Source: a virus. Taken from it: DNA of 49,280 nt. The DNA lies in UHGV virus genome UHGV-0151084, one strand, 5' to 3'. Positions within the stretch are counted from its first letter, which is position 1. Each line of letters opens with the position of its first letter. Shown here one piece after another: positions 1 to 49,280 of this stretch. The notes under the pieces were generated by a model. It made no database searches, was not told the DNA's origin, and saw nothing but the letters and a program-made list of their open reading frames with translations. A program made the position numbers and the translations under genes.

Positions 1-1391
1 CCTGTCTTTTGCACGGCGTTACCAGCCTTGTTTACCGTTTCCTGTAAACCGAGGTATTCGATAACGGCGGCAACGGTCGATTTCGCAAGAATATCCCGCC
101 CGACTTTTGTCAGAGTTGCCAGGCTGGCGACATCATTCCCCGTAAAATACGGAAACCTGTCTGCCGTAGTAGCAAGCCCGGCCAGCGCCGTCAGGGTGGC
201 ATCTTTCGGTTGCTTACCCGCAAGCGCGTTAGTCATGGTGGTCGCAAAATTCGGGTCGTTGCCCAACGCCGCAGCCAGCTCGTTCAGCGTATTCAGCGCG
301 TCAGGCGACGAGTCCACGAGGGCAGCGATCGCAGCCATAACATAAGCCGTGCTTGCGATCTGAGTATTGTTAGTACCTTTTGGCGCAGTTGGTGTTGTTG
401 GTGTTCCGGTCAGCGCCGGACTGTTCAGGGGCGCTTTCTTGTTCGTTTCATCCATTACCACCTTTACAGCTTTCGATGTCGCGGCCAGTGTTTCAGACGT
501 GCTGTTGGTGGCACTACTGAGCTGAGTTATTCCCCTTACAGTCAGTGAAGCTACAGGCACATTTGTTATCTGCTCCCACGAATGCGTGTGATTGGACGGA
601 GCCTTTCCGGCCGCAAGATCATACGCTGCCTTAACAGCCTTTGGTGTTGCTGCTAGCGTTTCAGACGTGCTGTTGGTGGCACTACTGAGCTGAACAATCC
701 CTTTTCGCGCTGTGGTAGCGTCCTGTGCGGTGTATTTGCCATTAGCCAGGTCATATGCTGCCTTAACAGCCTTAGGCGTCGCAGCAAGCGTTTCAGACGT
801 GCTATTGGTGGCGCTGCTAAGTTGAACAAAACCTTTTGAGGTTAAAGTTGCATCAGGATGATTACGTGATTGCTCATGTTTCACAATGGCTTGCTTAAGC
901 CGTTTTGCTGAAACAGCAAGGGAATCATCTGTACCTGCATCAATTTCTTGTTCATTAGCAAATCTTGCCACCCCAACAACAGTTTCGGTCGCGGGAGGAT
1001 TAATAAACTCAATATCACCAAATGTAATATTTTTAGTATCAAGAGTTTTAATTGCTATATCACTTGATATTAAAGCGATAGTAGATGATGCTTTATTTAT
1101 TATTGCTTGTTCTTGTGAGTATACAGCAAACAACGTACCCTTATTCGTATACAATCCTATTGTATGGACAACATACTCATCTTTACTATCATCCTTCGCT
1201 GTTACATGAATTGTATCAGGGGAAACAACTTTGCCACCTATTGTGGTAAGTCGTTTTATTTCGTTTGTTATATTTGTTTGTGAAGTTGACGTGACATAAT
1301 ATCTACTACCTAAACCAACAGAAACAATCTCAACTTTATTTGTTCCTGTTTTGTTGGCATTAACCAGCTCCTGACGCCCGGCGTCAGTCAT
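1..1391 (-). CDS. Tail fibre protein, constant N-terminal part (P2 gpH / Mu S-like); ATG at 1391, 3' end runs off the window start through a gix-like site
   Basis: Minus-strand translation from 1391 gives a continuous ORF of about 463 codons with three tandem ~33-aa repeats (G[IF]VQLSSATNSTSETLAATPKAVKAAYDLA) typical of phage tail-fibre shafts; sits after baseplate gene I; not in the ORF track because no stop lies inside the window. Confidence 0.8.
   Translation of the reverse strand, partial: MTDAGRQELVNANKTGTNKVEIVSVGLGSRYYVTSTSQTNITNEIKRLTTIGGKVVSPDTIHVTAKDDSKDEYVVHTIGLYTNKGTLFAVYSQEQAIINKASSTIALISSDIAIKTLDTKNITFGDIEFINPPATETVVGVARFANEQEIDAGTDDSLAVSAKRLKQAIVKHEQSRNHPDATLTSKGFVQLSSATNSTSETLAATPKAVKAAYDLANGKYTAQDATTARKGIVQLSSATNSTSETLAATPKAVKAAYDLAAGKAPSNHTHSWEQITNVPVASLTVRGITQLSSATNSTSETLAATSKAVKVVMDETNKKAPLNSPALTGTPTTPTAPKGTNNTQIASTAYVMAAIAALVDSSPDALNTLNELAAALGNDPNFATTMTNALAGKQPKDATLTALAGLATTADRFPYFTGNDVASLATLTKVGRDILAKSTVAAVIEYLGLQETVNKAGNAVQKT
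39..64. other. gix-like recombination site A (TTCCTGTAAACCGAGGTATTCGATAA) inside the 3' end of the tail-fibre constant region
   Basis: 26-bp site resembling Gin/Hin-family crossover sites as I recall them; positions 1-52 are the exact reverse complement of 46165-46216. Confidence 0.6.
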
Positions 1392-8981: not shown

Positions 8982-9503
8982 TTATAAACCTAAATCATCA
9001 CGAACGCTTTTTAATATATCTTCACCATCAAAGATACAAATAAAGTTCAACTTATCAATTTCCAAGACTTCTTTTCCATCAATAAATAATTTGATATAGA
9101 GAACTTCAAATTCATTCTCTGAATCAGTAGCCTTTGCCACCTGTAGCGAACCTAAATCCAGTTTTTTAGGGTTTAGCTTCATTGAAGCCCGAATAGGAAC
9201 CGTTTTATATTTTCCTGTTCCTGCATCATAAACCTGCTGGCTACCGCGAAAATCTACCTGATGCGATGAGGATAGAAATAATTTTGTACCAGCAGAGGTC
9301 AGAGTTCGCCATTTAAGAGAGACAGTCATTGGTTTGAAATGCCCCAGCGTTCCGCTCTCAAGCTCTCCAGCGATACCTGCACCACTAACAGTTTCTGTCA
9401 TCATCTCAATTGATGGCAGCTTTGCGTCAGCAACACCGATAATACGGTTTCCCTCACCGTATACTGTAAAGTTAATAAGTCTCTCAGGAATTTGATTGCT
9501 CAA
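8982..9503 (-). CDS. Tail tube protein (FII-like)
   Basis: 173 aa ORF between sheath and chaperone genes; size and position match contractile-tail tube proteins. Confidence 0.7.
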   Translation of the reverse strand: MSNQIPERLINFTVYGEGNRIIGVADAKLPSIEMMTETVSGAGIAGELESGTLGHFKPMTVSLKWRTLTSAGTKLFLSSSHQVDFRGSQQVYDAGTGKYKTVPIRASMKLNPKKLDLGSLQVAKATDSENEFEVLYIKLFIDGKEVLEIDKLNFICIFDGEDILKSVRDDLGL

Positions 9504-24731: not shown

Positions 24732-24997
24732 TCATCATCTCCTGCCGCACATACAACCTCACAAAAAACATCAGCGGAATGTTTCTTTTTGAATGAATGG
24801 CGCTCAAAACCGCACTCAATATCAGGCGCAAAAACATCCACCACATACGGTCTTTCAGAATGTTTGTTTTCCCAACGATAAACCGTAGTGACGTTGAAAT
24901 GTTTTAACGCTTCACGGAACTCAACGCTGCCCGTCAGGTTTTTTGAGGTCAGGTATTGCAGGAGGCTTTTTACTACTTCACGGTCTTGTACTTTCAT
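24728..24997 (-). CDS. Hypothetical protein, first gene behind copy 1 of the repeated promoter module
   Basis: 89 aa ORF; ATG preceded by GGAGATAACCCG as in the two other module copies. Confidence 0.45.
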   Translation of the reverse strand: MKVQDREVVKSLLQYLTSKNLTGSVEFREALKHFNVTTVYRWENKHSERPYVVDVFAPDIECGFERHSFKKKHSADVFCEVVCAAGDDE

Positions 24998-25115
24998 CGG
25001 GTTATCTCCGGTTTAGCCAGGGCGGGTATCGCTCGGTTTCGGGTATAACCATAGGAAATTTTTTCCCACCTGTAAAGCAATTTTTATATAAATATATAAT
25101 TATATAATTCTATGC
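24998..25115 (-). promoter_or_regulatory. Repeated promoter/leader module, copy 1
   Basis: About 105 bp near-identical to 32517..32640 and 42106..42225; contains TTTACA, AT-rich palindrome and conserved leader ending in RBS. Confidence 0.6.
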
Positions 25116-26016: not shown

Positions 26017-26092
26017 TGGTGGCCCCTACCGGATTTGAACCGATGACCGTGCGATTATGAGTCGCCTGCTCTAACCACTGAGCTAAGGGGCC
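26017..26092 (-). tRNA. tRNA with anticodon CAU (tRNA-Ile2 / Met-type), CCA encoded
   Basis: Minus-strand 76 nt GGCCCCTTAGCTCAGTGGTTAGAGCAGGCGACTCATAATCGC...GGGGCCACCA folds as cloverleaf; acceptor, D and anticodon arms match the enterobacterial tRNA-Ile2 pattern as I recall it. Confidence 0.85.
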
Positions 26093-26261
26093 ATATTTGA
26101 TTTGTTTGTCTGGTGTGGCGCCGCGCACGAAAATCCCAGCCAATAAATTCAGGATTTTTGGGCGCGGCGGCATATCAGACAAACATGGTTGATGCGTGCG
26201 CCCATGAGAAAAGCGCATAGAATGTTGTAACTATATATTTATATAATTATAGAAATATATA

Positions 26262-26471
26262 TTACTTTCGGCAGTTGATTTCCCATGCCCTGTTATGAGC
26301 CAGAATATCTTTCTTTGTCTGGCGGTCCATAACATCGATGTCGTGATCAGTCAGGTAGATGGGCTTTACCCAATCACAGGCGGTATCAACCACCACCGGG
26401 ACGCTTCCACGACTCCCGCAGCTCGCGATCAACATCGTCATCAGCCATATGGTTAACACTCTGCTGTACAT
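26262..26471 (-). CDS. Outer-membrane spanin (Rz1-like lipoprotein)
   Basis: 69 aa with signal peptide and lipobox-like LIASC; overlaps the 3' part of the i-spanin in another frame. Confidence 0.6.
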   Translation of the reverse strand: MYSRVLTIWLMTMLIASCGSRGSVPVVVDTACDWVKPIYLTDHDIDVMDRQTKKDILAHNRAWEINCRK

Positions 26472-31093: not shown

Positions 31094-31392
31094 GCCACAG
31101 CCCCTCTCAACGGCTTAACTTTGGCTAATAAGGTGTTAAACAACATGGAGTTAGGATTCATGCCAAATGGCAATTCCGGTTTAGCGGAGTAGTACAGGCA
31201 ACCATTTATTTTCCTGGTTGTTATCTGTCCTTCGGCAACCATGCTTCTCAGTCTGCAACGCATAGAGTTCTGCGACACACCAATGTGCTCCGCGATTACG
31301 TCCACTTTTGAACATGGGTGATCGGTCAGGAAATTAATCACATCTTGGGGGTTAATAATTTTGCGTTTCATTGTCGAGGCGTCCTTATACAT
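31090..31392 (-). CDS. Putative winged-helix DNA-binding protein
   Basis: 100 aa; HTH-like segment VDVIAEHIGVSQNSMRCRLRSMVAEGQI. Confidence 0.45.
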   Translation of the reverse strand: MYKDASTMKRKIINPQDVINFLTDHPCSKVDVIAEHIGVSQNSMRCRLRSMVAEGQITTRKINGCLYYSAKPELPFGMNPNSMLFNTLLAKVKPLRGAVA

Positions 31393-31448
31393 TTATATAA
31401 ATATATAATTCTATATACGGCGGGAGACATCCCGCCGTAGGCTTACTG

Positions 31449-32516
31449 TCAGGCTTTCAATAGCGATTCTTTCAGATATCGGGCATCAGCCAGGGCGTTT
31501 GGAGTAATCTTACGAACCCATGCATTACGGGTTGGACTCCACTTAAAGGCGCGTGATTTAAGCAGCGAACGAATGTTTGCCTCTGGTTTGCCAGGGAAAT
31601 AAAACAGGATGCGGTTATCCTCTGGATCTATCTCCATAGAAAAGCCGTCGTATTCTTCGCGCTGTGCTCCTGTTACAGACTTGACCGATTCAAGCTCCTT
31701 AATACGGCTCTGTAGTCGTTTGATTTCGGCCTTATTGTTGCTCAGTGCGTATGAAGGGAATCCGATGTGCCCACAGAAATCTCCGGCCAGTAACTCTTTG
31801 GCTTCGCTTTCTGTAAACCTGAGATCGATTAATGCAGAAAGCTGCTGTAATTGGTCTTTTTTGTATTTGCGAATGGCCTTATTTGCGGCCTTCATTTTGA
31901 CGTGTGACTTCATGCAGCCTTGCAGCTTACGAAGCAACTTAAATAGCGCATCAGGATCATCAGACGAAATTCCATTACGACCAACACCTGCGGCTTTGCT
32001 CTCGTAGTGTGATGCTTTACTTTCGCATTCAACAAACGCTTTTCTGAATAACGCATCAGCTTTAGACAAACGGCGGCGATGGCCTTTCGCGCTATAATGG
32101 TCAACTAAAATCGGCTGGCCTAACGGGATCACATCCAACAGGTCATGCGCTCGCTTATGCGCTACCGCACCTTCTTTTCTGGCTTTTTCTGCACGAGCAA
32201 TATATCGGGCAAGACGCGCGTTCTGGCGTTCCTGATAGGTGTTTACGTAATCATCTCCGCGCTGCTGCTGTTCAAGCCATGCTTTGCGCAGATCTTCTGT
32301 TACGTCCACCAGCTCCGCAGGGATACAACCAGTTTGGGCTTCATAAGAGTAACCATCCTCATAGATGCGCCCATCGTCTTCAACAAAGAAAAAGGTTTCG
32401 TGCTCATCGCTTTTGACCATACGACCATTAACATGGCGTAATAGGTAGCCAGTATCAGTGCTTAACAGGCTGTTAGGGTTGTTGATCCAGTCAGAAATAA
32501 TTACTTGTTTATTCAT
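31449..32516 (-). CDS. Hypothetical protein, first gene behind copy 2 of the repeated promoter module
   Basis: 355 aa ORF; basic central region; identity uncertain. Confidence 0.4.
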   Translation of the reverse strand: MNKQVIISDWINNPNSLLSTDTGYLLRHVNGRMVKSDEHETFFFVEDDGRIYEDGYSYEAQTGCIPAELVDVTEDLRKAWLEQQQRGDDYVNTYQERQNARLARYIARAEKARKEGAVAHKRAHDLLDVIPLGQPILVDHYSAKGHRRRLSKADALFRKAFVECESKASHYESKAAGVGRNGISSDDPDALFKLLRKLQGCMKSHVKMKAANKAIRKYKKDQLQQLSALIDLRFTESEAKELLAGDFCGHIGFPSYALSNNKAEIKRLQSRIKELESVKSVTGAQREEYDGFSMEIDPEDNRILFYFPGKPEANIRSLLKSRAFKWSPTRNAWVRKITPNALADARYLKESLLKA

Positions 32517-32640
32517 CAGATTTCTCCGGTTTAACCAGGGCGGGTATCGCTCGGTTTCGGGTATAACCTTAGGAAATTTTTTCCCACCTGTAAAGCACTT
32601 TTTATATAAATCTATAATTATATATTTATAGATTTTCGAT
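32517..32640 (-). promoter_or_regulatory. Repeated promoter/leader module, copy 2 (directly downstream of Q-like gene)
   Basis: Near-identical to copies at 24998..25115 and 42106..42225. Confidence 0.6.
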
Positions 32641-35210: not shown

Positions 35211-35867
35211 ATGAAAAGCAACGACGAGAACATCAAGAAAGAAATAGGTCTGCGCATTCAGACTCTACGGAAACAATCCGGCATGACTGCCGGAGATCTC
35301 CAGCAAGTCACTGGAATAGGCTTAAGCACCTTGCAGAACTATGAGGCCGGATTAAGACAACCATCTATACCTGCCATCAAGAAAATCGCGCACGCCCTGA
35401 AAGCATCAGCGCCTTATATCGCGTGCTTAACAGATAACCCGTTCCCACCCCAGAATACTAACGCTCCTGTTATTCCTGGGCTTGTAGCTATAAAAAATGA
35501 CATAGCATCGCACGCCGGAGAAAAGCCAGTGCTGGCGATAGAACAGGAGATTCTACGAAGCAAGAACATCAACCCATCGTCTCTGTCAGTTCTCCAGAGC
35601 AACGATGAGTTAATGTCACCAACAATATCCCCTGGCTCCCAAGTCCTGATTGATACAGACGATACAGAGATTCATGAGGGGATCTATGCCCTTGAAGACA
35701 GAAATGGCCTGGTTGTTTTGAGGCACTGTAGAGTCATACCGGGTGACAATGCTGTTATGCTGTCAACCGAAAGGGATGCTGAAATGAACACTAAGCATCT
35801 GAATAACGAGGAATTTAAGCGTTATAAAGTTCTTGGCCGCGTAGTTAGTGTTGTCAACTGGTTATGA
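35211..35867 (+). CDS. CI-like repressor (XRE HTH + S24 LexA-like peptidase domain)
   Basis: 218 aa; N-terminal HTH (LQQVTGIGLSTLQNYEAG), C-terminal S24-like region. Confidence 0.8.
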   Translation: MKSNDENIKKEIGLRIQTLRKQSGMTAGDLQQVTGIGLSTLQNYEAGLRQPSIPAIKKIAHALKASAPYIACLTDNPFPPQNTNAPVIPGLVAIKNDIASHAGEKPVLAIEQEILRSKNINPSSLSVLQSNDELMSPTISPGSQVLIDTDDTEIHEGIYALEDRNGLVVLRHCRVIPGDNAVMLSTERDAEMNTKHLNNEEFKRYKVLGRVVSVVNWL

Positions 35868-36334: not shown

Positions 36335-36364
36335 CTGAAAGCGGGCTAACGCCCGCTTATATGA

Positions 36365-36460
36365 TTATAGATTTATATAATTATATAAAACGCTTTTCAT
36401 CCGCCAAAAAGTTGGTTATGCTTACCTCGTTCTATAAATATAGATTTATATAATTATATA
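36365..36460. repeat. AT-rich iterons (ATAGATTTATATAATTATATAA x2) upstream of parA; candidate partition site / operator
   Basis: Two copies at 36365-36390 and 36431-36460; a third between parA and the ParG-like gene at 37141-37170. Confidence 0.5.
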
Positions 36461-36484
36461 ACCAAACACATGGAGTCTCGACAA

Positions 36485-37138
36485 ATGACTATCTCTGTAG
36501 GTATTTTCAACGGAAAAGGCGGCGTAACCAAATCAACAATTGCCCGTGCTTTAGCAGTTGCTTATGCAAAGGCCGGCTGGAATGTATGCCTGATCGATAT
36601 GGATGTGCTTAACGGAACGGTAACGCGTTGGGTACAACGCAGAATGGCCAACAATATCGAACCTGCAATCGCGGCGCAGCCGTGCGGCACGCCATCACAA
36701 GTCCAGAAAATCATCGAATCAGAAGTATACGACCTGGTTATCGTCGATGGCGGTGCCTACGCATCTGAATCAGTACCGAAGCTCTCTGAATTTCTGGATA
36801 TGGTTATTTTGCCAACCAGATTCTCTACCGATGACCTGGAAACCACCGTTAACACAGCTCATGGCATCGTTAAAAAGGGTGTGCCAATCAAGAAAATTTG
36901 CATGGTGTTCTCAGGCGCGGCTGAAAACGAAGCCGACTACATTGAAGCCCAAGAGTACCTGGCTAATACGCCATACTTTGTTGTCGATAAGTACATTCCC
37001 CACAAGCCAGCTCTGAGCAAAGCTCAGGATAAGGGCTTAAGCCTCATTGAATGCTCATACGTTGCGCCACGCAAAAAGGCAGACGACGTTATTCAGGGGA
37101 TTATCAACCAGCTTGAGGCTCTGACTACTGCCGCGTAA
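36485..37138 (+). CDS. parA: ParA-family partition ATPase (small, type Ib-like)
   Basis: Deviant Walker A GKGGVTKST; start placed at ATG 36485 with GGAG RBS. Confidence 0.8.
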   Translation: MTISVGIFNGKGGVTKSTIARALAVAYAKAGWNVCLIDMDVLNGTVTRWVQRRMANNIEPAIAAQPCGTPSQVQKIIESEVYDLVIVDGGAYASESVPKLSEFLDMVILPTRFSTDDLETTVNTAHGIVKKGVPIKKICMVFSGAAENEADYIEAQEYLANTPYFVVDKYIPHKPALSKAQDKGLSLIECSYVAPRKKADDVIQGIINQLEALTTAA

Positions 37139-37181
37139 TATATAATTATAGTTTTATAGATTTATATAAGAGGGGATACAC

Positions 37182-37652: not shown

Positions 37653-37676
37653 AAAAAAGGCCCCCGAAGGGGCCTA
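37653..37676. terminator. Hairpin terminator (GGCCCC-CGAA-GGGGCC) with A/T runs
   Basis: Perfect 6-bp GC stem; T-run on minus strand. Confidence 0.55.
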
Positions 37677-38096
37677 ATCGCTACTTGCTGCTAATGTTTA
37701 TCGTCACATTCAGAGCGTTATCAGTAATCTTCCAACCCTCCCCATGTGGCGTAAACAAAGCTCCAGTAACAACGATAAAAATACACATACAGTATTTTTT
37801 CATTGTATGGCCCTTACAGGCCGTTTCACGGCATCCCCACCGACGAAAACAACGCGAGAGCAAGCACGGCTGCTTGTGCTTGCATGTACGGCAACAGGAA
37901 ATCCTCCCCTAAAGTCGGTGCCCGGGTGCGAATCGGCGGGAAGGTCCACAGGTATTTTACGATTATTTTAAGATTAGTAATAGGAAAGAAATTAAACGAA
38001 AAAAACAGTTTATTTTCACAAAATCAGTAACCTACCCACAATCTGTGAGTTTGCTGACACAACAAGAACCACAATTTTTTGATGTATAATAGTGGA

Positions 38097-38291: not shown

Positions 38292-38396
38292 TGAATGCGC
38301 CATTGGTGGACACTTTCCGAGCCGTAGCAAAATCTACGGTCGGGATTAGCCTCCTGAATAACACGATGGCGCATACCGCGTTAGCGGTTTTTTTAT
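38292..38396 (+). ncRNA. Candidate structured RNA upstream of antirepressor operon
   Basis: TTGAC at 38286, internal hairpin CCGTAG/CTACGG, terminator ACCGC-GTTA-GCGGT + T7; shares GATTAGCCTC with the downstream leader. Confidence 0.3.
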
Positions 38397-38556
38397 GCGT
38401 AGAGCACTGTTACGCCCAAATTATGGTGGGTCGTACAGGGGCGGAGAAATCCGCGCCGGTTCGTCATTGTGTCCGGTAAGGCTAACCCTGTACGGCTCAC
38501 CACCATTTGATTAGCCTCGAATGGCGGTGATAGTTCCATATACTGGAGATATCACA

Positions 38557-38748
38557 ATGACAAACCTACCCCATGACTATTACGTCAACCTCGTAAAGAT
38601 CCTTCTCAAGAAAGCCTCATACGCCGATAAATTCCGCCTGGCTGAAATCATCGAGCGCGAAGCTATGCGCATCGCCAGCAACGATAACGCTGTTTCTGAC
38701 GCAAAAATCTCCCTCGTAACCAAAGTAGTTATGGGAGGTGCAAAATGA
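38557..38748 (+). CDS. Small protein translationally coupled to antirepressor
   Basis: ATG 38557 with GGAG RBS; stop overlaps antirepressor start (ATGA). Confidence 0.4.
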   Translation: MTNLPHDYYVNLVKILLKKASYADKFRLAEIIEREAMRIASNDNAVSDAKISLVTKVVMGGAK

Positions 38749-40013
38749 AAACGCTTCCGACCGTTAACACCCTACAGCCTATCCTGCATAACCAAATCCC
38801 TGTCATTACTACCGAGTTACTGGCACAGCTTTACGGCGTATCTCCTGTACGCATTCGACAAAATCATCATGAGAATAAGGAACGCTTCATTGAAGGTAAG
38901 CACTACTTCAAAATTGAAGGTAACGAACTTCGAGAGTTAAAGCACAAAGTGACTCAAGATAATGATGTGAAGAACAAAAACTCTTTAAGAGATTCAGTTA
39001 ATGACGCCCCCTCTAAAAGAGAGAGCGACGAGCACAGAGTAGTTTTAAACTACTCTGTTAACCACAAGGTAACTAAAAGTCACTCTGTGAAAATCGCCCG
39101 TAACGTTCGCTCCCTCATTCTCTGGACAGAACGCGGGGCTGCACGTCACGCCAAAATGCTTGAAACTAACCAAGCGTGGGATGTGTTCGAACGGCTGGAA
39201 GACTGCTACTTCAACCAGAACGCGCAAACGGCCGCGACCGTAACCGTCTCGCCAAACAATGCTCGTGAGGTTGTCGATACGCTCAACGCCAAACCGATGT
39301 TTTACATTAAGGTGTGCAATAACGAGCCACTCACAACCTCGGCCGATGTTGCCCAGGCATTCAGCACCACAAACAATTCCATCGTTATGGCCATCGATGC
39401 GTTACGCATTCCTCGCACAGCTGCGGCGCGTCATTTCTTTAAAGAGCAACGACCGTTGGAAGGAAGCGACCGCGAAATAACAATCTATCGCATGACAAAA
39501 GACGGATTTACCTTGCTCATGGAGAGCATCGACGGTCCAGGCGTAAAAGATATCAAGCTGGCCTACATTGAAGCCTTTAACGCTATCAGCAGCGTGTTAA
39601 AAACACAGTACGAGCGTGATCTGGCTAAACGACTGTACCAAGAAAAAACGATTATCCGCGCGGCAACAGAGCATAATCGGCTATTAACGGAACCGAACTA
39701 CCGCAAGACACTAATCAAAGAGTTTGACAAGGCGACGGAGAAAACTAAAGCGGCGCTAAGTCTGCCAGCAATGACTCAGGAAAATGTGATATCAGCCTTA
39801 CTTCTTGATCTGCTCAGGAACGCCAGAGCACTTATCAGCTTTGACGAGGACCTGAATCCTCAGCTCAAGCTACTACCACCGACAGGCAAAGTAGTCGACC
39901 AGGCTGATCACAACAGCATACTCAGCGTTCTGGATGCAAACCTGCCAGCCAGGACACTACAGGATCTGATAAAAACATGTGCTGATAAGCTGGCACAGAA
40001 AAGCAGACCATAA
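38745..40013 (+). CDS. Antirepressor (ORF6N-type N-terminal + Rha-type C-terminal domains)
   Basis: 422 aa; N-terminal IPVITTELLAQLYGVSPVRIRQNHHENKERFIEGKHYFKIEG; central TTSADVAQAF...TIYRMTKDGFTLLM resembles Rha. Confidence 0.7.
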   Translation: MKTLPTVNTLQPILHNQIPVITTELLAQLYGVSPVRIRQNHHENKERFIEGKHYFKIEGNELRELKHKVTQDNDVKNKNSLRDSVNDAPSKRESDEHRVVLNYSVNHKVTKSHSVKIARNVRSLILWTERGAARHAKMLETNQAWDVFERLEDCYFNQNAQTAATVTVSPNNAREVVDTLNAKPMFYIKVCNNEPLTTSADVAQAFSTTNNSIVMAIDALRIPRTAAARHFFKEQRPLEGSDREITIYRMTKDGFTLLMESIDGPGVKDIKLAYIEAFNAISSVLKTQYERDLAKRLYQEKTIIRAATEHNRLLTEPNYRKTLIKEFDKATEKTKAALSLPAMTQENVISALLLDLLRNARALISFDEDLNPQLKLLPPTGKVVDQADHNSILSVLDANLPARTLQDLIKTCADKLAQKSRP

Positions 40014-41724: not shown

Positions 41725-42105
41725 TTACTTAACGAGGAATAAAAATGGTTTATTGTTCGGCGGTGTAATCGGGGCTGGCTCGCTTTTGCTCATGCGATCA
41801 GTGTACCAGGCCAACTCCTTGTCAAAGTAAGCCTGATTAAAATAGGCCATGAATGTAGTTTCAAATCCATAACGACCGCTAATACGCAGCATCTGATTGC
41901 CGTTCTCTGTTTCCAGATATACCTGGGCACGTTCCTGATTCTCCTTCAGCCAGGTTAAAGCCTCATCGCATGAGGACACACGATACTCATCATCGTAGCA
42001 GTCATCGATGCGGCTTGAGGAAGAACGGCAAATCACGCCAACAGAACCAGCCAGGATAGTTTGAATTTTAAGGAAAGCGTTTTTGCGGATTTTAATCATG
42101 CTCAT
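41725..42105 (-). CDS. Hypothetical protein, gene behind copy 3 of the repeated promoter module
   Basis: 126 aa; N-terminal hydrophobic signal-like segment. Confidence 0.45.
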   Translation of the reverse strand: MSMIKIRKNAFLKIQTILAGSVGVICRSSSSRIDDCYDDEYRVSSCDEALTWLKENQERAQVYLETENGNQMLRISGRYGFETTFMAYFNQAYFDKELAWYTDRMSKSEPAPITPPNNKPFLFLVK

Positions 42106-42225
42106 CGGGTTATCTCCGGTTTAACCAGGGCGGGTATCGCTCGGTTTCGGGTATAACCTTAGGAAATTTTTTCCCACATGTAAAGCACTTTTTATATAAA
42201 TCTATAATTATATAATTCTGTGAGC
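42106..42225 (-). promoter_or_regulatory. Repeated promoter/leader module, copy 3
   Basis: Near-identical to copies 1 and 2; preceded upstream by a terminator at 42227-42254. Confidence 0.6.
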
Positions 42226-44377: not shown

Positions 44378-45226
44378 TTAATGTTGGAGTGATTTCCAAG
44401 TCTTTCTTAACCTGTTATAACGCTGCTCAACGAGGGATCGTAAATATGCAAGGTCAGCTCCAGGATACATGCCATCAGCAAATTCCTGGCTAACCTCTCT
44501 AGTGATTTGATGACGAAGTTCGGCCTCTCCCTTTTCCCGAACAAGACGCGCAGCTCTCTCCGCTGCTTTCTGTTTTGCCTTTATCTCTCTGGCCGTCTTC
44601 CTCTGACGCCATACATTCTCCATCTGCTCCTGAATAACAATACGCTTATAATCAGCCTCCGTTATCGCTTTTTTAAGCCGTTCGCTATTCTTCGCATTGA
44701 AGTAATTAAGTTTCTGGCTAACCGCACGTCTCCATGCTTGTTCAGTAATACCAACGGTTTCCAGCAGTTGATCACGAATCTCTATTTTCGCTGGCCAATA
44801 CTGTTTATTCACCCGATCCCAGCGACGTTCATAATCAATAAAACCTAACGCTTTCAGTTGCGACAACGCCCTTGTACAGCGCGTTATAGACTTGTTCCCA
44901 GCTTCGGATACGGTAGACAGACCGCAAAAATCAGCCAACGCCTCAGCACTGGCCAGAACCCGCTTAGAAATGATGTTTACATGGTGCAAAATCGCAGCAA
45001 TCACAGCATTAATCGCCCGACGACGATGCTCGTTTATCCGGCGTTTCCGCTCTGACGGTTGATTAACGTAGAACGCAACCTCACACGTAAGATCACGACC
45101 ATTAATGCGCTGTAAAGCATCAGATAACACCAGCGGCAGCTTGTGCGTATGGTGCTTTGGAGGCTGGAACTCCGGCGACAAATTACAAACGTAAGCTGAA
45201 CGTAGAGACGGCATTGGTCTATCCAT
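44378..45226 (-). CDS. repA: Replication initiator RepA, IncFII (RepFIIA)-type
   Basis: Central region LSTVSEAGNKSITRCTRALSQLKALGFIDYE aligns with IncFII RepA1 (LATESAAGKLSITRATRALTFLSELGLITYQ); start placed at internal ATG 45226. Confidence 0.8.
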   Translation of the reverse strand: MDRPMPSLRSAYVCNLSPEFQPPKHHTHKLPLVLSDALQRINGRDLTCEVAFYVNQPSERKRRINEHRRRAINAVIAAILHHVNIISKRVLASAEALADFCGLSTVSEAGNKSITRCTRALSQLKALGFIDYERRWDRVNKQYWPAKIEIRDQLLETVGITEQAWRRAVSQKLNYFNAKNSERLKKAITEADYKRIVIQEQMENVWRQRKTAREIKAKQKAAERAARLVREKGEAELRHQITREVSQEFADGMYPGADLAYLRSLVEQRYNRLRKTWKSLQH

Positions 45227-45241
45227 ATGTTCGCTCTTGCG

Positions 45242-45348
45242 TCCACGGAAAACCAACGTATAATGGGAGTTGTCGAGGCGCCCATGGTTAATTGTTGGTT
45301 TTCCGTGGATGTCGCAAGAAGCCCGCAGATTTATCTGCGGGCTTTTTG
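45242..45348 (+). ncRNA. Candidate CopA-like antisense RNA in repA leader
   Basis: Plus strand: perfect 16-bp inverted repeat (45242-45257 / 45294-45309) then terminator GCCCGCAGAT/ATCTGCGGGC + T5, antisense to the repA 5' region. Confidence 0.45.
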
Positions 45349-45536
45349 TTTCCATATCTGGTCGCTTTCCAACCAGACACCCACAATCATAACCACGTTA
45401 CGTGGTTTTAAGAGAACTCTACCACAACACTTTCGGTCATGCACGAAGTCTCTCACTGATCGAACGATAATCCACCAGTAAAAGGATCTAAATTGGATCT
45501 CGTTTTGCGAGCATCATACTACTGGCCTAACTCCAG

Positions 45537-46091
45537 TCAATGATTCCCAGCCGGAAACCTGCGGTAAAGCGTGGATAAGGTAACATCGAAGATAATCGCT
45601 ATCCGCTTACGTGAAACACCATTCGCAATAAGCCTTCCGATCTGTTCCCATTGCTCTGGGGCCAATTTTGAGCGGCGTCCTCCTATCCTGCCATTAGCCC
45701 TTGCCACCGCCAATCCTGCACGCGTTCTTTCAATCATATTTTCCCGCTCCATCTCTGCGACTGCACTCAGCATCGTGTAGGCAAAGCGGCCAATTGAAGT
45801 GCTAATTTTTATCCCTTCCGTAATCGAAATAAACTCAATGTTGTTTGATAAAAAATGGTTAAGTAAATCAACAAGATGAATCAGAGAACGCCCCATTCGA
45901 TCCAGCTTCCAGACAATAACCGTATCGCCCGGCCGTAACACCTTCAGTAGCTTATCAAGCCCTGGTCGTTTTGATTTAGCACCGGATATTTTATCTTCAA
46001 AAATCCGGTCACATCCTGAACTCCTGAGCGCCTCCAGTTGTAATTCCAAATTCTGGTCAAAAGTTGACACCCTCGCATAACCATATTGCAT
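45537..46091 (-). CDS. Serine DNA invertase, Gin/Cin/Hin family
   Basis: 184 aa; YARVSTFDQ catalytic-serine motif, C-terminal HTH; 64 bp from gix-like site B. Confidence 0.85.
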   Translation of the reverse strand: MQYGYARVSTFDQNLELQLEALRSSGCDRIFEDKISGAKSKRPGLDKLLKVLRPGDTVIVWKLDRMGRSLIHLVDLLNHFLSNNIEFISITEGIKISTSIGRFAYTMLSAVAEMERENMIERTRAGLAVARANGRIGGRRSKLAPEQWEQIGRLIANGVSRKRIAIIFDVTLSTLYRRFPAGNH

Positions 46092-46119
46092 ACTTTCTAA
46101 ACCGCGATTGTTGCTAAAA

Positions 46120-46194
46120 GCGGGAAAAAATATCGTTCAGACGACACAGAGGCAATTCGCAAAAACCTCGGTTTACAGGAAACGGTAAACAAGG
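46120..46194. repeat. Left arm of inverted repeat flanking invertible tail-fibre cassettes
   Basis: 75 bp with 2 mismatches to the reverse complement of 49206-49280. Confidence 0.8.
46156..46181. other. gix-like recombination site B (TTCGCAAAAACCTCGGTTTACAGGAA)
   Basis: Inverted relative to sites A and C. Confidence 0.6.
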
Positions 46195-46205
46195 CTGGTA
46201 ACGCC

Positions 46206-47186
46206 GTGCAAAAGACAGGCGATACCTTGTCCGGTGGACTTACTTTTGAAAACGACTCAATCCTTGCCTGGATTCGGAATACTGACTGGGCAAAGATTGG
46301 ATTTAAAAATGATGCCGACAGCGACACTGATTCATACATGTGGTTTGAAACAGGCGACAACGGCAATGAATATTTCAAATGGAGAAGCAAACAAAGCACC
46401 ACAACAAAAGACCTGATGAATCTTAAATGGGATGCTTTGTATGTTCTTGTCAATGCCATTGTAAATGGCGAAGTCATATCAAAATCAGCAAACGGCCTAC
46501 GTATTGCTTATGGTAATTACGGATTCTTTATTCGTAATGATGGTTCAAATACATACTTCATGTTGACAAACTCCGGTGACAACATGGGGACTTATAACGG
46601 ATTAAGGCCATTATGGATTAATAACGCTACTGGCGCTGTTTCGATGGGGCGTGGCCTTAATGTTTCAGGGGAGACACTTTCAGACCGTTTTGCTATTAAC
46701 AGCAGTAATGGTATGTGGATTCAGATGCGCGATAACAACGCTATCTTTGGGAAAAATATAGTTAACACTGATAGCGCTCAGGCGTTGCTTCGCCAGAATC
46801 ACGCCGACCGAAAGTTCATGATAGGTGGACTGGGGAACAAGCAATTTGGCATCTACATGATTAATAACTCAAGGACAGCCAATGGCACCGATGGTCAGGC
46901 GTACATGGATAATAACGGGAACTGGCTTTGCGGCTCGCAAGTTATTCCCGGAAACTATGGCAATTTTGACTCCAGATATGTGAAAGATGTTCGACTTGGT
47001 TCACAGCAATATTATGGAGTGAACAACTGGCAAACATGGAATTTCCAGTGCCCGTCAGGTCATGTATTGTCTGGTATTAATGTTCAGGATACAGGGTCCA
47101 ACTCTGCCGATAATATAGCGGGCGTTTATTACAGACCCGTTCAAAAGTATATAAATGGCACCTGGTATAATGTAGCGAGCGTTTAA
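46206..47186 (+). CDS. Tail fibre variable C-terminal cassette (Sv'-like), currently not joined to the constant region
   Basis: Frame is open from 46101 through site B; first residues [15 protein letters not shown] identical to the end of the constant gene at the window start. Confidence 0.75.
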
Positions 47187-47187
47187 T

Positions 47188-47715
47188 ATGATGCACTTAA
47201 AGAACATAAAAGCGGGTAACGCTAAAACACTGGAACAGTATGAGTTAACAAAGAAACACGGAGTTATCTGGCTTTACTCTGAGGACGGAAAAAACTGGTA
47301 TGAGGAAGTGAAAAACTTTCAGTCAGACACAATAAAGATTGTTTACGATGCAAATAATATTATTGTCGCCATCACTAAAGATGCCTCCACGCTTAACCCT
47401 GAAGGTTTTAGCGTCGTTGAGGTTCCAGATATTACAGCCAACCGCCGCGCTGATGATTCAGGAAAGTGGATGTTTAAGGATGGAGCTGTAGTTAAACGGA
47501 TTTATACGGCAGACGAACAGCAACAACAAGCCGAATCACAAAAGGCCGCATTGCTTTCCGAAGCTGAATCAGTCATCCAGCCGCTGGAACGCGCTGTCAG
47601 GCTGAATATGGCAACAGACGAGGAACGCACACGACTGGAAACATGGGAACGCTACAGTGTTCTGGTCAGCCGTGTGGATACGGCAAATCCTGAATGGCCA
47701 CAAAAGCCTGAGTAA
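47188..47715 (+). CDS. Tail fibre assembly protein (Tfa, U'-like)
   Basis: 175 aa; conserved Tfa pattern (NWYEE...[14 protein letters not shown]...KWMFKDG). Confidence 0.8.
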
Positions 47716-47721
47716 AAATTA

Positions 47722-47740
47722 AGGCCCGATATCGGGCCTT
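47722..47740. terminator. Bidirectional hairpin between convergent Tfa genes
   Basis: AGGCCCGATATCGGGCCT palindrome. Confidence 0.5.
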
Positions 47741-47743
47741 CTC

Positions 47744-48277
47744 TCATTCTGGTTGTTCGGGAAACGTTACTGGCAGGCTGGAGGTGTCTGTGGATTCGAC
47801 TTTCTGCGCGTAGAGCATCCACTCGGTTAATTTTTGTTTATTCTCGTCGGAAATGATGCCCAGCCGTAGCTGTGAGTCCCATAGCTGGGTTTTATCCCTG
47901 ACAAGTTGCAACAGGCTTTGCTTTTCATTCTCTGCCTGCTGCCTCTGTTCCTCCTCGGTATAAGTTCGCTTTATCACTACGCCATCTTTGAACATCCATT
48001 TACCCGAAATATCAGCCCGGCGATTTGCTGTAATATCAGGTAATTCAACGACGCTTGCGCCTTCTGGATTAATTGCTGAAACATCCTTTTCAATACAAAT
48101 AATAACGCCGTTGTGGTCATAGACCATTTTCAACGTATCAGGCTGAAAGTTCTTTTGTTCCTCATACCAGTTTTCCCCATCCTCTGTATAAAGCCATTTG
48201 ATGTTAAATTGTTTCGTTAGCTGGTATTGCTCTTTTGTTTTAGGGTTGCCAGCAGTAATATTTTTTAAGTGCATCAT
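47744..48277 (-). CDS. Tail fibre assembly protein (Tfa, U-like)
   Basis: 177 aa paralog of 47188..47715. Confidence 0.8.
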   Translation of the reverse strand: MMHLKNITAGNPKTKEQYQLTKQFNIKWLYTEDGENWYEEQKNFQPDTLKMVYDHNGVIICIEKDVSAINPEGASVVELPDITANRRADISGKWMFKDGVVIKRTYTEEEQRQQAENEKQSLLQLVRDKTQLWDSQLRLGIISDENKQKLTEWMLYAQKVESTDTSSLPVTFPEQPE

Positions 48278-48279
48278 AA

Positions 48280-49280
48280 TTAAATACTCCCCGCGTTATA
48301 CCACGTTCCATTAATGCAATACTGAATTGGCCTTGCCTGAGTTGTATCAATTAATTCATCACGGTTTCCGTTAACTGACCCCGTAACGACATAACCTGAC
48401 CTGTCAGACCAGCCGGGACCATTCCATGTCTGAACAGATGACAGACCGCCAAGACGAATACCTGTAATAAACCTTGAGTTACATTCTGCCTGCGTATATG
48501 CACCAACATCTCCCGCTGATGGCTTACGTGTTGTGGTGTAAATTTCTGACCAGTCAGCTTCGAATCCGTAACCATCACGCGCTGAACGATAAAAAATACC
48601 GCCGTTCCTGTAATTCACACGGAACTGTACGGCAGGGCAACTCCCCGTATTCATATTGAAGTGGAGGATTAATGTCGATGCGCCACCAATATTTGCGTTA
48701 TAGACCCCGCTATTCCAGTTCCAGCCAACAGCTTTATCATTTCCGACAGTGCTTCCTGTTTGCCCTAAAGCAAATGCAGGCTGCTGGTTTTTCGTGTTGT
48801 AGTCTCGTCGCCAGCCAGGAGCATAAGCATCACCATGATTAATATAAGTGAATTGAGCGTTAGTGATTCCGCCACCGCTGGAAGTGCTCGGGGTGGTTAC
48901 ACGGATGGTCATGGCTCCTTTATTACCCATAACCTCAATAACGCAACCTGCAAGATGAATAGTTCCACAGCCAGTATCGGTAATAATTTTATTATTGCCG
49001 TATGACCATGAACATTTGCACATCCAGTATGGGTGATTGAATGCCCCTTGAGAATCAAGCCATTCAATCAATTGTGCCGTTGTCCAGTTCCCTGCCCCTG
49101 TACTAATAGCACTGTGAAAAGCACGACATGCACCAATATTTTTTGTGAAGGTATCTTTTCCAGGAATATCTGCGCCGTTCTGGTTTTTCTGTAATGCGCC
49201 AGAAGCCTTGTTTATCGTTTCCTGCAAACCGAGGTTTTTGCGAATTGCCTCTGTGTCGTCTGAACGATATTTTTTCCCGC
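48280..49280 (-). CDS. Tail fibre variable C-terminal cassette (Sv-like); frame continues through site C beyond the window end
   Basis: Track start at 49227 is a TTG artefact; frame stays open upstream (…KKYRSDDTEAIRKNLGLQET…). Confidence 0.75.
   Translation of the reverse strand, partial: GKKYRSDDTEAIRKNLGLQETINKASGALQKNQNGADIPGKDTFTKNIGACRAFHSAISTGAGNWTTAQLIEWLDSQGAFNHPYWMCKCSWSYGNNKIITDTGCGTIHLAGCVIEVMGNKGAMTIRVTTPSTSSGGGITNAQFTYINHGDAYAPGWRRDYNTKNQQPAFALGQTGSTVGNDKAVGWNWNSGVYNANIGGASTLILHFNMNTGSCPAVQFRVNYRNGGIFYRSARDGYGFEADWSEIYTTTRKPSAGDVGAYTQAECNSRFITGIRLGGLSSVQTWNGPGWSDRSGYVVTGSVNGNRDELIDTTQARPIQYCINGTWYNAGSI
49206..49280. repeat. Right arm of inverted repeat (truncated by window end)
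   Basis: Reverse complement matches 46120-46194. Confidence 0.8.
49219..49244. other. gix-like recombination site C (TTCCTGCAAACCGAGGTTTTTGCGAA)
   Basis: Same orientation as site A, inverted relative to site B. Confidence 0.6.

Follow-up and report, generated by a model that had tools for sequence, protein, structure and literature searches.

Both ends of the window, by which the whole stretch of 49,280 nucleotides analysed here is meant, recur in inverted form at a single place in its interior, beside a gene for a DNA invertase. This raises the question of whether the termini represent real neighbouring sequence, with a third crossover site, or whether they were produced by the assembly of a circular molecule whose invertible segment was sequenced in both orientations. 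The second answer is given a probability of nearly nine in ten: the window is most probably a whole short-read contig, assembled at k = 55, from a phage-plasmid that is circular, measures about 49,180 bp, and carries a two-site invertible segment.

Terminal matches and crossover sites

Positions 1-55 are the exact reverse complement of 46165-46219, and a second such match, again of 55 bp, pairs 49226-49280 with 46120-46174. In the first-pass annotation of this DNA, 1-52 had been paired with 46165-46216; the match is real, but its register was off by three, the true partner of 1-52 being 46168-46219. The pairing of 49206-49280 with 46120-46194 was correct, with two mismatches (at 49215 and 49225). 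Both terminal inverted pairs were recovered by a repeat finder (pairs I3 and I1), and in I1 a weaker inverted repeat continues from the window end as far as 49187. The terminal inverted matches are far beyond chance. A simple circular overlap was rejected, the window being without a direct terminal repeat.

The crossover sites are gix-like, with 26 bp consisting of two 12-bp half-sites around a GA core. Sites of the form TTCCTG[T/C]AAACC GA GGT... lie in inverted orientation at both ends of the segment. A 20-nt site pattern, allowed up to three mismatches, matches the window at 39-58 (plus strand), 46162-46181 (minus strand), and 49219-49238 (plus strand), three matches against 0.00 expected from 100 shuffles. 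For the junctions at these sites, the constant part of the tail fibre gene is designated Sc, the flank on the invertase side F, and the two ends of the segment a (the Sv end) and b (the Sv' end).

The copy at the Sc junction (39-64) reads TTCCTGTAAACC GA GGTATTCGATAA; its inner half-site is of the 'a' type, its outer half-site is specific to Sc, and this Sc-side site is also found in all five relatives. The internal copy at the F-a junction (46156-46181) reads TTCGCAAAAACC TC GGTTTACAGGAA on the plus strand, and the copy at the window end, at a b-F junction (49219-49244), reads TTCCTGCAAACC GA GGTTTTTGCGAA. The outer half-site is thus GGTATTCGATAA beside Sc and GGTTTTTGCGAA beside the invertase, and the junction sequences recombine exactly at the site core. 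The two real sites of a molecule in one orientation have just ten exact bases in common (ACCTCGGTTT). Next to the invertase-side site, the flank F (46092-46155), between the start codon of the invertase and the site, is conserved in all relatives.

No further site was found in the window beyond the three copies when four 26-nt consensus patterns, including a generic Hin-type palindrome, were searched with up to 5-6 mismatches. The inverted repeats I2 and I4 within the segment were considered as sites and rejected; they are the homologous 5' parts of the genes U and U'.

Outside the site cores, each window end carries a short overhang assigned to the alternative orientation. At the start, positions 1-38 (minus strand) are an exact copy of 46182-46219, a stub of the beginning of cassette a in an Sc-a junction. 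At the end, the last 48 bases (49233-49280) comprise the invertase-side half-site and flank, within which the duplicate flank at 49245-49280 is the reverse complement of 46120-46155.

Tail fibre gene, cassettes and invertase

The constant N-terminal part of the tail fibre gene (53-1391, minus strand) lies downstream of the P2-type baseplate genes J and I and contains three Phage_fiber_2 repeats (Pfam PF03406, E 2.3e-59). It reads through the site with no stop: the minus-strand frame from 1391 to 1 comprises 463 codons, without a stop, and begins MTDAGRQELV. The earlier proposal that this gene passes in frame through the site (39-64) into the start of the plus-strand cassette is confirmed, the sequence being identical. 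In the relatives, the gene across the Sc junction is annotated as a tail fibre protein of 744-816 aa.

Two variable cassettes make up the segment. Cassette a (46170-47715, plus strand) consists of Sv, whose start is given as 46170 or 46206 and which extends to 47186, and of the tail fibre assembly gene U (47188-47715); its Pfam matches are Gp34_trimer and Caudo_TAP. Cassette b (47744-49230, minus strand) consists of U' (47744-48277) and Sv' (48280-49230), with matches to Caudo_TAP and gp37_C. In the body of the window, cassette a stands beside the invertase; its frame is interrupted by a stop at 46098 and lacks an ATG upstream of 46206, so that the cassette is silent in this arrangement. Cassette b would be the one expressed once the circle is closed through an Sc-b junction. 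When the two fusions are built from the window, both are intact with a single terminal stop, Sc-Sv having 785 aa and Sc-Sv' 763 aa.

The part of the invertase-side flank at 46101-46169 (plus strand) is open in the cassette frame. It reads ...KKYRSDDTEAIRKNLGLQ, resembling the Sc end ...VAAVIEYLGLQ, and may be a relic of another constant region.

The invertase gene (45537-46091, minus strand) encodes a serine DNA invertase of the Gin/Cin/Hin type with 184 aa. Its Pfam domains are Resolvase (PF00239, E 2.6e-44) and HTH_7 (PF02796, E 2.9e-13), and it has the features of the small serine recombinases, in that a resolvase catalytic domain with a Ser near position 9-10 makes up its N-terminal part and is followed by a C-terminal HTH. 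The N-terminus MQYGYARVSTFDQ aligns to GYVRVST of Gin and Cin. Among solved structures, Mu Gin (3UJ3) scores highest with 211 bits, with a further Gin structure (4M6F) at 207 bits, and the γδ resolvase scores 110 bits; the protein is therefore closer to the DNA invertases than to the resolvases. It is 56% identical in amino acids to Gin, and likewise to Cin, and NCBIfam models matched it at sub-threshold level only. The gene is transcribed away from the invertible segment, like gin in Mu. When the region upstream of it was scanned for sigma-70 promoters, none that was convincing emerged between the site and the start of the gene.

Within the gene, the stretch 46002-46073 (minus strand) is homologous to the enhancer annotated inside P1 cin (nt 19-90 of that gene). 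Its identity is 65% to Mu and 61% to P1, compared with 56% for the whole gene. This moderate conservation is suggestive of a putative recombinational enhancer that would depend on Fis.

The DNA of the segment (46170-49230), arranged as Sv U / U' Sv', is 92-95% identical to the G segment of Mu (92-93%) and the C segment of P1 (94-95%), and the adjacent invertase (45537-46091) has the 56% protein identity to Gin and Cin given above. Such a mosaic indicates that the cassette has probably been exchanged independently of its recombinase.

Taken together, these features place the system, as predicted from sequence, in the Din/Hin family of serine DNA-invertase systems (Gin-gix type), with predicted activity. 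Two inverted 26-bp sites flank the segment, and both orientations occur (see below). As in Mu G, the order is Sc - site - Sv U / U' Sv' - site - invertase, with the invertase gene pointing away from the segment. The inner half-site TTCCTGTAAACC (TTCCTG[T/C]AAACC) and the GA core are identical to those of Mu gix, and Mu Gin has the nearest structure to the invertase, although the protein identity is limited to 56%. Further differences from Mu are found in the outer half-site, which is GGTTTTGGATAA in Mu and is here replaced by two sequences, the Sc-side and invertase-side forms, that also differ from each other; in the constant part, which is P2 gpH-like with Phage_fiber_2 repeats; and in the host replicon, a RepA/ParA plasmid-prophage in contrast to a transposing phage.

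With P1 and P7 the element shares the plasmid-prophage lifestyle and a C4 antisense RNA immunity module, and its Sc-side outer half-site is similar to that of P1 cixR (GGTATTGGATAA). P1 cin, however, reads toward the segment, with cixL overlapping its 3' end, whereas the invertase here reads away. P1 also differs in having 0.6-kb inverted repeats inside the segment, and its 94-kb genome is a different replicon. The Min system of p15B has in common with the window the Din-family type of invertase and the tail-fibre cassettes. Min of p15B has six crossover sites and several cassettes; the present element, in contrast, has two sites and two cassettes.

By analogy with what is described in the Gin, Hin, and Cin literature, invertase dimers would bind the two sites, the enhancer bound by Fis would assemble the invertasome, and strand exchange would occur at the 2-bp core by subunit rotation. 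In the present element, the Gin-like invertase would exchange strands at the central GA/TC of the two inverted 26-bp gix-like sites. By flipping the 3.06-kb segment, the enzyme would provide Sc with one of two in-frame partners: Sv, giving a fibre of 785 aa with U alongside, or Sv', giving one of 763 aa with U'. Inversion would thereby swap the C-terminal, receptor-binding part of the fibre together with its chaperone, and would be expected to change the host range. The host-range cassette of Mu G / P1 C is widely exchanged, and the element is one more replicon that carries it.

Circularity, orientation and the contig break

When positions 1-52 and 49233-49280 are dropped and the remaining ends are joined, a circle of 49,180 bp results, in which a fourth junction, Sc-b, is formed. 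The window is colinear over 45.1 of its 49.3 kb with a complete circular plasmid of Escherichia coli ATCC 25922 (NZ_CP009073.1; 48,488 bp). Positions 9189-9223 of this plasmid are matched by the window both at 49238 and at 24, and the two window ends therefore abut there. The constructed join (48901-49232 plus 53-400) aligns to the plasmid without gaps over 680 of 680 positions at 95.4% identity, and the annotated 802-aa tail fibre gene of the plasmid spans the predicted join. The Yersinia phages vB_YpM_39, vB_YpM_41, and vB_YpM_44 (OR545053-55) are about 99% identical to the window over the structural half, and their records are circular, with the order Sc - segment - hin. Both expectations of the first-pass annotation about the join hold up. 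The molecule is circular, as the complete circular plasmid and phage records of 48-49 kb are colinear with the window and its ends abut and overlap there. The end-to-start join is in frame to the minus-strand cassette (48280-49230), yielding the 763-aa product with a single stop, gapless against the ATCC 25922 plasmid.

Three of the four possible junction types are present in the window: F-a in the interior (46120-46219), Sc-a at the start (reverse complement of 1-100), and F-b at the end (reverse complement of 49181-49280). Sc-b is absent until the circle is closed. A molecule with two sites in one orientation has either Sc-a and F-b, or Sc-b and F-a. Therefore, the window mixes both orientations, and the suggestion that both were present in the sequenced DNA is supported by the contig itself.

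The place of the break is equally specific. The first base that distinguishes Sc from F is window position 56, and the first that distinguishes a from b is 49225. Each terminal exact match runs inward from the contig end for exactly 55 bp, until its discriminating base is reached, in agreement with the earlier view that the contig was broken at the crossover region. In a canonical k-mer count, the internal site is repeated at k = 55 by two k-mers of the contig only, the first and the last, and at k = 56 by none. Terminal k-mers shared internally in reverse complement, with a match length equal to k, are the signature of a contig end in a de Bruijn graph, and from the contig we infer an assembly at k = 55. 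This value is a common final k in assemblers of the SPAdes type.

In a genome with a single orientation, the sites share ten bases; therefore no branch would arise at k = 55, and reads of both orientations would be needed. With both orientations sequenced, the assembly graph would have branched at both sites. The assembler would have followed the path invertase - F - site - a ... b - site, beyond which no choice was possible. The contig would end on the two 55-mers of the branch nodes, its start (Sc-a) and its end (b-F) coming from the other orientation than the interior F-a. An exact direct repeat of 65 bp elsewhere in the window (32523/42113) was traversed by the assembler; therefore the stop at the inversion reflects truly conflicting paths rather than mere repetitiveness. 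The same traversal also counts against this account, since the contig is then not a plain unitig, and it must be assumed that repeat resolution failed at the inversion only.

Both orientations occur in nature. For each of the four junctions, a 162-nt probe was searched against PLSDB, and a record was counted when the match extended over no less than 80% of the probe length. There were 10 records for Sc-a, 18 for Sc-b, 4 for F-a, and 20 for F-b. Among the records listed, the junctions are found as reciprocal pairs, Sc-a with F-b in AP025749, CP098182, CP057564, CP057568, CP025877, AP019710, and CP080230, and Sc-b with F-a in CP139394 and CP035864. A second record of strain ATCC 25922 (NZ_CP032086.1, plasmid pL25922_3; linear, 94,204 bp) contains two tandem copies of the 48.5-kb element, whose segments are opposite in orientation and whose tail fibre proteins have 802 and 816 aa. 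As opposite orientations are found within this strain, the switch therefore operates in a clonal relative. The record itself may be either an over-assembled concatenation or a real dimer.

It might be argued that both orientations were sequenced with no switching in progress, each being fixed in one of two coexisting strains or lineages, or in different copies within a plasmid multimer. The contig does not separate switching within a clone from such a mixture, and the 94-kb ATCC 25922 record, with its two opposite copies, would fit it. This is nevertheless considered unlikely, because every shared 55-mer is exact and the junctions show no sign of strain polymorphism, because the invertase gene is intact and accompanied by both sites, and because independent assemblies of ATCC 25922, a clonal reference strain, between them contain both states.

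A variant of comparable improbability is that the mixed junctions came from a single molecule, either a multimer of the plasmid prophage or a concatemer from replication or packaging, with tandem copies in opposite orientations. The 94-kb record is compatible with a multimer, and an over-assembled long-read concatenation of a mixed population explains it equally well. If such a molecule existed, four sites would be available to the invertase, which could also invert intervals of whole-genome length between the copies.

The possibility of three gix-like sites and a Min-like multiple-inversion system, raised by the first-pass annotation, was not substantiated. On that interpretation the third site would be genuine, as in Min of p15B, and the window ends would be real neighbouring sequence. 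There are indeed three site copies in the window, and cassette content differs among the relatives. Each terminal copy, however, has just a single 55-mer in common with the internal copy before the contig stops. The complete ATCC 25922 replicon has two sites even when up to 6 of 26 mismatches are allowed, and each of five complete relatives has exactly two in the region, distinguished by an Sc half-site in the one and an F half-site in the other. Moreover, there are only two Sv cassettes and no site inside the segment, so that the more than two sites and more than two cassettes on one replicon that define a Min/p15B system are not found, and the plasmid records hold the junctions as reciprocal pairs. 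A genuine third site is thus very improbable; the apparent one would be an assembly duplicate, a k-mer overhang, and the true molecule is predicted to have two.

Least probable of all is pure misassembly of a genome with a single orientation, with chimeric or hairpin artefacts at the inverted repeat giving false terminal junctions: inverted repeats are generally known to cause artefacts at contig ends, but the ten exact bases shared by the real sites in one orientation are far fewer than k, so that no collapse of the graph is expected, and the terminal Sc-a and F-b junctions are the reciprocal pair of complete relatives such as vB_YpM_41 and vB_YpM_44.

If, as preferred here, the window is a contig that ended where reads of the two orientations diverged, it should not be taken as bearing terminal inverted repeats or a third recombination site. 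In practice, 100 bases (1-52 and 49233-49280) would be trimmed and the remainder circularised to 49,180 bp. A terminal reverse-complement overhang of exactly k would, more generally, be a cheap indicator, requiring no reads, of an inversion switch that is heterogeneous in the sequenced population. Five other IMG/VR contigs with the same Sc-side site start just 36-258 bp inside the invertible segment, and appear to show the same kind of assembly break.

The replicon and its other features

A gene for an IncFII-type RepA (44378-45355, minus strand; NF040977, 231 bits against a cut-off of 70) adjoins the invertase gene. ParA (36470-37138) and a CI-like HTH/S24 repressor (35211-35867) are encoded on the plus strand. 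Head and tail genes, the latter for a P2-like tail, are present on the same replicon, and the complete plasmid that is colinear with the window has no integrase among its annotated genes. With RepA and ParA, a virion gene set, and no integrase in that annotation, the element is classed, on predicted gene content, as a phage-plasmid (plasmid prophage).

The E. coli phage-plasmids of 48-49 kb and the vB_YpM phages belong to the same element family, being 95-99% identical over most of the window and having the same circular layout of Sc - segment - invertase - repA, with cassette alleles and orientation varying between records. Near-identical elements, with the invertase annotated, are already in GenBank. 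Literature searches returned nothing usable that names or describes this phage-plasmid family of 48-49 kb or its inversion. The plasmid pSLy3 was considered as a member and rejected, as it is a 114-kb element of the SSU5 type, and the published vB_YpM papers were set aside as they concern other phages. That the cassette is paired with a Gin-like invertase of divergent sequence, on a small RepA phage-plasmid that is common in E. coli, would be unsurprising to specialists.

Several repeated elements occur elsewhere in the window. A unit of about 115 nt is present in three copies with 87-95% identity (24994-25114, 32512-32632, and 42102-42222, in minus-strand reading). In it, a TATA-rich array with a periodicity of 8 bp precedes a conserved leader of 88 nt, the end of which coincides exactly with the ATG of a different gene in each copy (24997, 32516, and 42105). 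The folding energy of the leader is -21.5 kcal/mol (z = -2.2), and the unit has no match in Rfam. It looks like a shared promoter/operator with a 5'UTR. Arrays of 8-mers of the TTATATAA/TTATAGAT type are found at no fewer than eight intergenic spots in both orientations (repeat families D1 and I5-I25), including 25076-25115, 26223-26270, 31377-31416, 36357-36461, and 37138-37177. These may be binding sites of a regulator of the phage-plasmid.

Rfam matches at gathering level were obtained for isrK with C4 antisense RNA (38321-38507, plus strand), ryfA (37653-37949, minus strand), and a tRNA (26020-26092, minus strand). The isrK and C4 elements lie directly upstream of an ORF6N/Rha ant-like gene (38745-40013), and together with it are predicted to form an immI module of the P1/P7 type.
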